A stretch of DNA of 64,000 nt from Escherichia coli (GCF_003019035.1 NZ_CP027447.1); one strand, 5' to 3'. Shown: positions 4,490-7,173, counted from the stretch's first letter. Translations and numbers: made by a program. The notes: generated by a model not told the origin, from the letters alone.

Positions 4490-4596
4490 GATCGTCTCCT
4501 TGCGGTGTGAGGTATAACAAGGGTAGACGTGACTGGCGAAATCTTCGCCAGTCGATAACAGCTTTACGACGGCTATCACGAATTTACGGGCAAGGG

Positions 4597-5892
4597 TTAC
4601 AGCGGATAATGCGCGAAGTACACGGCTTGCTGGTCATTAATTTTCTTCTCTTGCGCAAACCCTTCTTTAACAATTGTCCGTAAATCAGCTCGAGCCGTAT
4701 TATCAGAGACGCCCAGGCTCGCGCTAATTTCAGCAACTGTGTACTCTTTCCCCGGATTGGCGAGCATCACATTCAGGAGCGTTACCTGGCGCGGATTCAG
4801 GCGTTTAAGCACACCAGAGCTAAACAGCACACTATCGAGTTTTGCGCTTCGTTGTGTAATTTCATCGATATGCTGCTGCCAGTTTTGCAGAGCACGTTTA
4901 ATGACACCCGCCTGATATTCAAGGAAATAAGTCAGATCCATACCATCTGATTCAGTGTACTGGTAGCTGGCGGCATATTTGACCGGTGCAGCATGAAGCA
5001 AACGGCTGATGGAAATATATTTAAAGACATCGTAGCCCGATTTCAGCATATACCAGTAAAACAGCGCCCGACTGGTGCGCCCGTTGCCATCCCGAAACGG
5101 ATGTTCATGGGCCAGCATAAAATGCAGAATGCAGGCACGGACCAACGGATGAATATACCCTTCATGGCTGTTTAACCACTGGCAAACTTTTTCCAGCCGT
5201 TCCGGTAACAATGCCGCAGCGGGCGGTTGATGCACTATACTGCCATCATAGTCGGCGATCACAACATCATCTGTTTCACGAAATTCTCCCGGACGATATT
5301 TCGCGTCATTGATTCCACCCATACCAATGGCATGTAACTGGCGAATAAGCGCAGGTGTCAGCGGTTCTGCGAGTAAGTGCGGAATTTCCGCCATCAGCCG
5401 GGCATTTCCCGCAATCATATGCTCGTCTTCAGTGCGTGGCGACCGCCCTGTTTCCAGCATTTTTCTCGCCACCAGCGTTGTAGTATTCGCACCCTCCAGC
5501 TGGGAGCTGGTGATCGGCTCTTCCAGGCGTAACTGGCTTAACTCGGCTCCGGCCCCGCGTAACCGTTCAGTCTGATCTTTCAGCGCCAGCGCGGTAGCAC
5601 GTTTGTCGACAAGCTCGCACGCTTCTGCAATCACCGGGGTAATGTTGAATCCGGCCTGTTCACCCGCTTCATTGCAATAATTAATTCGTTGGATCGCCGC
5701 GTTGCGCGCCAGACGGGTAAGCGTCCACGCCACATCGACGTTTTCTCCTTTTTTGATGCGGTACTGCAACTCATCAAAAGGCAGATAACGTCCTTTTTCA
5801 TCGGTAACCCGGTTAAAGCGCAGGTGGGCCAGGAGTTCCTCACCCGATAAGTGTGATAAAGGAATAAGTCCGGGAGGTGATTTGATAGCCAT
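4597..5892 (-). CDS. Fic/Doc-family protein (putative AMP-transferase) with N-terminal inhibitory-helix motif and C-terminal winged-helix-like domain
   Basis: 431-aa ORF, ATG start. Fic motif [12 protein letters not shown] at residues 264-275 (nt 5068-5103); SSQLEG at residues 129-134 (nt 5491-5508) matches the (S/T)xxxE(G/N) auto-inhibition motif; C-terminal ~70 aa look like a wHTH. Confidence 0.85.
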
Positions 5893-5897
5893 GTGCT

Positions 5898-5978
5898 TAT
5901 CTCAAAAAAGCGCAATATTGAGATAGTGTATAGCAGGAAAGAGAAACTATCTCAAAAAAAGCAAGTTTTGAGATAGTT
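5898..5978. promoter_or_regulatory. Two related palindromes between yiaY stop and the fic start (candidate operator pair and/or yiaY terminator)
   Basis: Palindrome A 5898-5925: TATCTCAA / TTGAGATA arms with 12-nt spacer. Palindrome B 5945-5978: AACTATCTCAAAA / TTTTGAGATAGTT arms with 8-nt spacer. Both share the core CTATCTCAAAAAAGC...TTGAGATAG. Confidence 0.35.
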
Positions 5979-6021
5979 GAAAAAGCGGCTGACAACTCGC
6001 CAGCCGTTGTGGGAATGATGA

Positions 6022-7173
6022 TTACATTGCGGCGCGATAAATCGCCACAATTTCTTCGTGAGTTGCCTGGATCGGGTTAGTAAAGCCACAGGCATCTTTC
6101 AGGGCATTAGTCGCCAGTACCGTGAAATCTTCTTCTTTCACGTTCAGATCGCGTAGGCCTGCCGGGATATCCACTTTCTTCGCCAGTTCACGGATGGCGT
6201 TAATGCAGGCTTCAGCCCCTTCCGCGTCATTTTTGCCTGTCACGTTCACGCCCATAGCAGCAGCACAGTCACGCAGACGCGCAGCGGCGACTTTGCTGTT
6301 GAATACCTGAACATGCGGCAGCAGAACAGCATTACATACACCGTGTGGCAGGTTGTAGAAACCGCCCAGCTGGTGCGCCATCGCATGAACATAACCCAGA
6401 GAAGCATTATTGAACGCCATACCGGCGAGGAACTGGGCATAAGCCATTGCTTCACGCGCTTTAGCATTGCTGCCATCTTCAACGGCTAACGGCAGATTTT
6501 CGGCAATCATGGTCACCGCTTTCAGTGCGCAAGCGTCAGTGATCGGCGTGGCGGCAATAGAAACATACGCTTCGATAGCGTGCGTTAAGGCATCCATACC
6601 CGTTGCGGCGGTCAGTGACTTCGGCATACCGATCATCAGAGAGGAGTCATTGACAGAAAGCAACGGAGTTACATGTTTATCAACAATCGCCATTTTGATA
6701 TGACGCGCTTCGTCAGTGATGATGCAGAAACGGGTCATTTCAGAGGCCGTACCCGCCGTGGTATTGATGGCGATCATCGGCAGCTGCGGTTTTGCAGAGC
6801 GGTCAACGCCTTCGTAATCGCGAATATCGCCGCCATTGGCTGCCACCAGCGCAATACCTTTTGCGCAGTCGTGCGGAGAACCACCGCCTAAGGAGATCAC
6901 GCTATCGCAATTATTTTCTTTAAGTAATTTCAAACCTGCGGCGACGTTTTCCGTGGTGGGGTTAGGTTGGGTGCCATCATAAATAACGCTAAAAATATTG
7001 CGTTCTTCCAGTGCTTTTTGCACATCACCCGCCATACCCAATTTCGTTAACATATTGTCGGTGACAATTAAGGTACGGGTAAATCCATAATCTGCCATCA
7101 TATTCATTGCATCATTCAATGAATCAGCACCAATAACATTCACGGAAGGAATAAAAAAGGTTGAAGCTGCCAT
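6022..7173 (-). CDS. yiaY: Iron-containing (group III) alcohol dehydrogenase
   Basis: 383-aa [22 protein letters not shown]... with GGGSPHD and Fe-ADH signature regions; sits between aldB and selB as in E. coli. Confidence 0.9.

Follow-up and report, generated by a model that had tools for sequence, protein, structure and literature searches.

Twin palindromes upstream of a variably present Escherichia coli fic gene as a candidate operator pair for autoregulation by a Fic-winged-helix protein

CccR (YPK_0951, Yersinia pseudotuberculosis; PDB 7XUX) belongs to the class II Fic-HTH proteins and, acting as a dimer, represses its own promoter (PMC9755527). Its operator PcccR, AGATAATCAT-N26-ATGATAATCT, is located near the -35 and -10 elements, and this assignment is based on footprinting, EMSA, ITC, and reporter assays (PMC9755527). 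For SoFic (SO_4266, Shewanella oneidensis), AMPylation depends on dimerization, and the dimeric protein binds DNA within the 100 bp that precede its own start codon (bioRxiv 10.64898/2026.07.09.737422). For CbFic2 (Coxiella burnetii; PDB 8CIL), the available part of the report describes dimerization driven by DNA binding of the HTH and a switch between AMPylation and deAMPylation of a host histone; the binding experiments presented there used generic dsDNA oligonucleotides of defined length, and that part identifies no operator (PMC10628234). The role of the HTH in the Pseudomonas fluorescens protein Fic-2 was stated to be unknown (PMC7479194). Among toxin modules, the title of a 2018 report by Hampton, cited in PMC9755527, announces cooperative binding and DNA bending by AbiEi.

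We analyzed a 64,000-nucleotide stretch of E. coli DNA (NZ_CP027447.1, GCF_003019035.1; hereafter the window), in which yiaY (6022-7173, stop codon at 6024-6022), fic (4597-5892, 431 amino acids, ATG at 5892), and aldB (beginning near 4490, directly 3' of fic) all lie on the minus strand. The yiaY-fic gap of 129 nt contains, in this order, a GC-rich hairpin with a T tract, palindrome B, a 19-nt filler, palindrome A, the pentamer AGCAC, and the ATG. The hairpin and T tract constitute the intrinsic terminator of yiaY (5980-6006, minus strand; CGGCTGGC...GTCAGCCG then CTTTTT at 6006-5986; nine pairs, six of them G-C), which sits between the yiaY stop codon and B, outside the fic control region, and is retained in the fic-less K-12-like and N96-like genomes.

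Palindrome A, the candidate proximal operator (O_P; 5898-5925, minus strand), reads TATCTCAA-N12-TTGAGATA, with arms of 8 nt each (5898-5905 and 5918-5925) that are 100% complementary across a gap of 12 nt. Palindrome B, the candidate distal operator (O_D; 5945-5978, minus strand), has arms of 13 nt each (5945-5957 and 5966-5978) that are 100% complementary across a gap of 8 nt, and contains the core TCTCAA-N12-TTGAGA at 5950-5973. An earlier description of this region made from the DNA alone (the sequence-only reading) had placed two palindromes with these boundaries and with 8-bp and perfect 13-bp arms, respectively, between the yiaY stop at 6022 and the fic start at 5892, and our analysis confirmed this placement, with both genes on the minus strand. 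It had also taken A and B to be two copies of one element, and this holds: in the TATCTCAA-N12-TTGAGATA frame, B occupies 5948-5975 and shares its geometry with A, and the two palindromes are direct repeats of each other (30 nt, 80% identity, 50 bp from start to start), with the resemblance extending to ACTATCTCAA. As it had further noted, A lies just upstream of the fic ATG and no canonical Shine-Dalgarno sequence is present 5' of fic; the gap between A and the ATG is 5 nt (AGCAC), and the sole SD-like purines are the GAGA within the right arm of A.

The pattern TATCTCAA-N(5-15)-TTGAGATA matched twice in the window, compared to zero matches in 100 dinucleotide-preserving shuffles. Across the 64 kb, no further credible dyad sites beyond chance were found at up to two mismatches, and hence no regulon was seen there. 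The 8-mer TATCTCAA itself occurred nine times in the window, compared to 1.6 expected and a shuffle maximum of 5. Five of these occurrences, at 308, 10806, 17103, 43041, and 55427, are extra lone copies with no N12 partner half-site. As RNA, the region forms three hairpins (z = -5.8), which correspond to the yiaY terminator (-13.5 kcal/mol), B (-13.6 kcal/mol), and A (about -8 kcal/mol), and no Rfam family was matched at E values up to 1. A dispersed or REP-like repeat was ruled out, as the element occupies a single place in each genome, invariably on the chromosome. True plasmids contained no dyad element (two matches in the plasmid collection were 4.9-Mb records), and the twin-dyad cassette was not found on viral contigs.

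The domain searches and the structural model place the fic product among the class II Fic enzymes that carry a winged helix at the C-terminus, the architecture of SoFic, CccR, and CbFic2. The Pfam Fic domain was detected with an E value of 1.1e-19, and HTH_DeoR gave a weak match to the C-terminus (0.001, under the cut-off), where homologues do carry HTH Pfam domains. The Fic motif, of the HxFx(D/E)GNGRxxR type, comprises residues 264-275 (5068-5103, minus strand), in which H264, P265, F266, D268, G269, N270, G271, R272, and R275 are invariant across 26 homologues. On the same chain, N-terminal of the Fic motif, lies S129-S-Q-L-E133-G134 (5491-5508, minus strand), corresponding to the class II inhibitory motif (S/T)xxxE(G/N) as defined in PMC9755527; the S129, E133, and G134 columns are invariant among the same 26 homologues. 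In the AF2 model (pLDDT 89.8), the C-terminus consists of helices at residues 367-378, 386-393, and 397-409 and strands at 413-417 and 423-427, from which the winged helix was assigned to residues about 365-431 (4600-4800, minus strand), with the recognition helix SDNTARADL.

Full-length Foldseek matches to the protein were CbFic2, SoFic, and CccR (entries 8cil, 3zcn, 3eqx, and 7xux). The PADLOC SoFic model matched with 1.3e-43, and the NCBIfam SoFic equivalog model NF046030 gave 39.4 bits, compared to its cut-off of 550. Since the fold is shared but the equivalog model is not matched at its cut-off, the protein would belong to a separate subfamily within the Fic-winged-helix architecture; it has approximately 95 extra N-terminal residues. 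In the literature, we found no description of the yiaY/aldB-flanked E. coli fic gene or of its operator.

Compared with CccR, the E. coli protein has the same N-terminal inhibitory helix, C-terminal HTH, and palindrome at its own promoter, and by analogy it may also act as a dimer and a repressor. The DNA-binding helices of CccR are reported to be about 70 Å apart, close to the roughly 68 Å between half-site centers here. However, CccR has 380 residues, compared to 431 for E. coli Fic, and the two proteins resemble each other in sequence only within the Fic domain (1.4e-11, residues 122-289). Furthermore, CccR uses a single site with N26, whereas two TATCTCAA-N12-TTGAGATA sites lie 50 bp apart here, unrelated in sequence and spacing to PcccR; and binding and repression were determined experimentally for CccR, whereas they are inferred for E. 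coli Fic.

For SoFic, the region that is bound is the one in which the dyads lie here, although the SoFic site is defined only to a 100-bp fragment. The overall folds are similar (Foldseek TM 0.6-0.72 over about 350 columns), but the E. coli protein is not an equivalog (NF046030) of SoFic, whose family functions in anti-phage defense. EcSofic from E. coli H397 is not the same protein: it is shorter, and its gene is followed by that of an antitoxin, AS1; no AS1-like gene lies downstream here, because aldB directly follows fic. CbFic2 is the top structural match to E. coli Fic, with a Fic domain and a winged helix in both; the available part of the CbFic2 report describes neither an operator nor autoregulation, whereas twin dyads are found here at the protein's own gene. 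The operators of AbiEi and of type II antitoxins follow the same logic, in which a toxin module represses itself through repeated promoter dyads. In those systems, however, the DNA binder is a separate antitoxin, whereas here the toxin-like enzyme has its own DNA-binding domain and its inhibitory element is intramolecular.

The position of the dyads relative to a candidate promoter was examined on the minus strand. The right half-site of the distal operator doubles as the candidate -35 hexamer TTGAGA (5950-5955; 5/6 matches to TTGACA) and is followed at a spacing of 17 nt by the candidate extended -10 element TGcTATACA (5927-5935). The E. coli -10 is weak, as TATACA lacks the T at position 6; the alternative register TACACT at 5930-5925 has a poor -35. 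A scan for a strict sigma-70 consensus called no promoter in 5600-6300, and the promoter assignment therefore rests on the comparison of anchored sequences across taxa. In that comparison, a -10-like hexamer, defined by at least 4/6 matches including A2 and T6 and by an end 1-4 nt before the proximal core, was present in 21 of 29 distinct loci (shuffle mean 8, maximum 15), and in 16 of the 29 it was accompanied by a -35-like hexamer 16-18 nt further upstream (shuffle mean 1.3, maximum 6). The -10 often takes the form TGnTATnnT and is TATAAT in Leptolyngbya, and the -35-like box coincides with the distal dyad's right half-site, as TTGAGA or the shifted GAGACA. The Klebsiella and Pectobacterium relatives, which have no distal dyad, carry a perfect TTGACA at the equivalent place. 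Among the Escherichia alleles, substitutions are found in the B spacer and the filler, and the arms and TGCTATACAC, the -10 box region, are invariant. In silico, the dyads thus appear to flank a conserved promoter-like layout, that is, the palindrome overlaps the gene's own -35/-10 region. Transcription of fic is predicted to start at about 5918-5921, inside the 5' arm of A, so that A spans the predicted start and the whole of the short leader.

To which gene the dyads belong was addressed in other taxa, using 80 fic loci obtained by a genome scan with the family alignment, supplemented with Salmonella, Klebsiella, Rahnella, and Pectobacterium loci from protein look-ups. Of the 80 loci, 32 have the core TCTCAA-N12-TTGAGA (at most one mismatch) in the 400 nt preceding fic, and 16 of these carry at least two copies, compared to only six matches in the remaining 471,556 nt. 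The core was found in E. albertii, Pseudescherichia, Photorhabdus, Buttiauxella, Pseudomonas, Marinomonas, Alteromonadales, and the cyanobacterium Leptolyngbya, as well as in the fic loci of Salmonella, Klebsiella, Rahnella, and Pectobacterium. The universal element is the proximal dyad: in 30 loci with 29 distinct upstream sequences, 1-9 nt separate its end from the start codon, and its core begins 23-33 nt before that codon. In the 17 dyad pairs, the distance from the proximal core up to the distal core is 49-52 nt. At every dyad-bearing locus other than that in the window, yiaY is missing and the upstream neighbors are all different. These results suggest that the dyads belong to fic and not to yiaY; the assignment of the dyads to yiaY was ruled out, as yiaY is absent from the other dyad loci and has its own terminator.

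The locus of Alcanivorax quisquiliarum (L040) carries three dyads, at -125, -75, and -25 from the fic start, in exact 50-nt steps, an arrangement that suggests higher-order phased binding. Only 32 of the 80 family loci have this core, and many Pseudomonas members had no detected dyad. No N12 dyad is present in L023, L050, L067, and other Pseudomonas loci encoding the N-terminus MKKPP..KGRSD, some of which carry ACTCAA...TTGAGT arms approximately 19 nt apart with an inner palindrome. In these loci, the operator geometry or the start site may be different. With respect to genomic context, the Salmonella orthologue (L085/L086) adjoins an autotransporter gene and genes for AcaB and DUF3158, the latter two of which we take to be ICE-associated, and the Klebsiella orthologue (L087/L088) adjoins a gene for a DUF927 protein. 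The Salmonella and Klebsiella orthologues are thus in mobile contexts, and the E. coli copy lies between housekeeping genes.

In the reverse test, in which metagenomes were searched with the exact twin-dyad pattern alone, 80 sites on 79 stretches were recovered. At 68 of the 80 sites, a Fic-family ORF began 1-25 nt downstream of the twin dyads, and at no fewer than four (L094, L145, L099, and L133), a fic pseudogene or deletion relic came after them. Five sites, including L133, which is also counted among the relics, lay at the end of a stretch and were not assessable, and four were unexplained (the first site of L097, L147, and the identical sequences L160 and L168). The sites with no adjacent Fic ORF are at 1483-1556 of L097, 233-306 of L147, and 3944-4016 of L160; the orphan pair of L097 lies approximately 925 nt upstream of a second pair, which precedes fic. 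Twin dyads of this kind could represent additional sites of a regulon or cassettes that have decayed. In L133 (147-221 and flank), the Fic N-terminus (MIKRPP...) is joined in frame to the recognition-helix region (...YNTASTVLNGLVE), and the contig stops 46 codons into the fusion ORF. The fusion could be a natural derivative consisting of the winged helix only, or a deletion relic.

The operator consensus is T-Y-R-TCTCAA-WW-N8-WW-TTGAGA-Y-A-R. In 46 distinct sites, the core is nearly invariant as sequence, the edges are A/T-rich, and the spacer center carries no information and is not self-complementary. The arms are kept as sequence, and not merely as pairs, over protein identities down to about 40%. 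The variant clades keep CAA/TTG and alter the outer bases symmetrically, as in TTTCAA/TTGAAA, CCTCAA/TTGAGG, and AC[TG]CAA at N10-11. These variants track the recognition helix of the cognate protein: helices starting with S[DY]NTA pair with TCTCAA half-sites; helices starting with AYNT pair with TTTCAA in 4/4 cases from four different genera (L030, L037, L038, and L028); and the clade of approximately 445 amino acids with the helix x[EA]NTAR pairs with AC[TG]CAA at N10-11. If the cognate protein reads the DNA directly, such tracking would be expected. Base 2 of the half-site changes with the residue that opens the recognition helix (S versus A), a candidate specificity determinant. The positions -2 and -3 flanking the core are symmetric beyond shuffles; flank symmetry is predicted by both an RNA hairpin and protein binding, and was therefore not used as a discriminator.

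The distribution of the cassette in E. coli was examined in the 5,357 complete genomes that matched an aldB-fic-yiaY query. The fic gene (at least 80% of the query) is carried by 1,572 genomes (29%), including O157:H7 and Nissle 1917, and the full 93-nt control region by 1,575. As a pair, the dyads were found in E. coli only in these 1,572-1,575 fic-bearing genomes, in single copy and on the chromosome. About 3,280 genomes have neither fic nor the control region, and about 504 have only a B-like piece (44% cover, 85-88% identity), the absence of fic from this last group having been checked in N96 and 14EC020. The K-12-like genomes contain the scar CAAC-TATCTC-TGTAA-CCC, in which the first six bases of the dyad arm are joined to the last five bases of fic. 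The scar looks like the remnant of a deletion of approximately 1,368 bp (5969-4602) that extended from the dyad arm to the last fic codons. In E. albertii, the fic cassette is likewise located upstream of aldB, and its presence is therefore probably ancestral and its absence derived.

The sequence-only reading had held that palindromes downstream of yiaY in strains lacking fic would belong to yiaY. Such a copy does exist, namely, the B-like piece of the about 504 genomes, but it is best read as a relic of fic-cassette deletion and not as a yiaY element, since elsewhere the dyads occur with fic and without yiaY. Two alleles of the relic were distinguished by comparing 14EC020 (L092, 401-441) with N96 (L002): in one allele, a single arm is changed (TATCTC...GAGAGA), and in the other, a matching change in the second arm (TCTCTC...GAGAGA) restores a perfect palindrome. 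This arm change could be due to hairpin-templated quasi-palindrome correction or to selection on a hairpin at the yiaY 3' end. In E. coli 366_BP0076 (L093, 440-560), an IS200C copy adjoins the relic dyad, in the place usually occupied by the yiaY terminator.

Three other explanations of the palindromes were weighed. The first is that B also, or instead, functions as a Rho-independent terminator or insulator that shields a toxin gene from upstream read-through, which could coexist with operator function. A terminator scan flagged 5978-5945 (13 pairs, a loop of 8, and the tail TCTCTTTCCT), the B hairpin is equal in energy to the yiaY terminator (-13.6 kcal/mol), and the perfect distal stem of locus L019 is followed by T7. 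In addition, a B-like hairpin has been kept in the about 504 fic-less genomes, in one allele of which the second-arm change restores its symmetry. However, the GC-rich yiaY terminator already lies 8 nt upstream of B, only three of the 13 pairs of B are G-C, its tail is mixed T/C, a T-rich tail after the distal dyad is missing in most taxa, and about 3,280 E. coli genomes have no B at all. Furthermore, a terminator needs neither the conserved core sequence, nor the N12 spacing, nor the distance to the -10. We regard this explanation as unlikely, and give a similarly small probability to a secondary insulating role for B alongside its operator function. The proposal of the sequence-only reading that B is the terminator of yiaY is not supported, as yiaY has its own stronger terminator and the T-rich tail is not conserved in other taxa.

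The second explanation is that A acts at the RNA level, forming a leader hairpin 5' of fic that would mask a weak ribosome-binding site and thereby control translation; the sequence-only reading had proposed a translational-control hairpin of this kind and had suggested folding of the minus-strand transcript. In read-through RNA, both A and B do form hairpins, and the 3' arm of A, which ends 5 nt from the AUG, holds the sole SD-like purines. In a hand tally of base counts, 10 of 12 one-sided core transitions were still G-U compatible in the sense-strand RNA; this wobble-compatible drift is a residual hint of RNA-level constraint on the core, and it was given little weight, as the cases are not independent. 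Conversely, the conserved -10 ends 1-4 nt before the core, and with the predicted start inside the 5' arm of A, the fic mRNA would not contain hairpin A: a transcript from about 5920 has no hairpin A, folds with only -3.9 kcal/mol, and is unstructured around the AUG. The A-type arms are moreover conserved as sequence to about 40% protein identity with no Rfam match, and the same element recurs 50 nt further up, upstream of the promoter and outside the fic mRNA. Translational control by A is thus very improbable.

The third explanation, in which the dyads are read by a factor other than Fic, either a host regulator or a recombinase that uses them as cassette ends or attachment sites, is scarcely credible: the cassette is present or absent at one E. 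coli site with a junction inside the dyad (CAAC-TATCTC-TGTAA in K-12-like genomes), and relatives are found in mobile contexts (Salmonella, with genes presumed to be of ICE origin, and Klebsiella, with the DUF927 protein), but both dyads are on one side of fic with nothing comparable at its 3' end, no recombinase travels with fic, no host regulator is common to the enterobacteria through the cyanobacteria, the half-site variants follow the Fic recognition helix, and the element is not dispersed, being confined to one place per genome and absent from plasmids and viral contigs.

A and B therefore remain, as a pair, probable operators for negative autoregulation by the winged helix of a Fic dimer, a reading based on sequence comparison. 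Autoregulation through the Fic wHTH, as the sequence-only reading had suggested, is supported by the observed association of the dyads with fic across taxa, by the observed anatomy of the sites and position of the promoter boxes, by the observed co-variation of operator and recognition helix, and, by analogy, by the CccR precedent (PMC9755527).

In the proposed mechanism, the cassette would be self-contained, with the order O_D, promoter, O_P, weak ribosome site, and fic. Fic would function as a dimeric class II AMP-transferase that places one recognition helix in each half-site, the half-site centers being 20 bp apart (about 68 Å) over an A/T-rich spacer. O_D would overlap the -35, and O_P the transcription start and the leader, so that their occupancy would exclude or trap RNA polymerase. 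We infer that Fic itself is the binding protein and that the outcome is repression rather than activation. Through its operators, Fic, a potentially toxic enzyme, would thus limit its own level and keep it low. The conserved phasing of 50-51 bp suggests that the two sites are bound cooperatively, from one face of the helix.

A further idea concerns the activity of the enzyme. By analogy with the DNA-driven switching of CbFic2 and with the dimerization-dependent AMPylation by SoFic, operator occupancy could set the activity state of the enzyme, and the cassette could then be a one-gene sensor-effector that functions as an abortive-infection or growth-arrest switch. Displacement of Fic by phage DNA, decoy sites, or damage would cause derepression together with the release of active toxin. 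We consider this extension of the repression model speculative and decidedly improbable.

Given the CccR precedent, the proposed mechanism of self-repression is one already known, in that a toxin-like enzyme repressing itself has been described. What is new is the subfamily, the consensus defined for it, the layout of two operators phased at 50 bp with the promoter sandwiched between them, and the conservation of this layout across phyla. Within this architecture, a binding site had been defined only for CccR, and SoFic binding had been mapped to a 100-bp fragment. For the large, uncharacterized Fic-winged-helix subfamily, the present analysis offers an operator consensus and a promoter map with candidate sites, and the pairing of the helix residue S or A with TCTCAA or TTTCAA, respectively, would be a ready-made candidate specificity code. 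For E. coli, it supplies the probable control region of an unstudied and variably present Fic gene that about 1,570 of the 5,357 complete genomes carry between aldB and yiaY.
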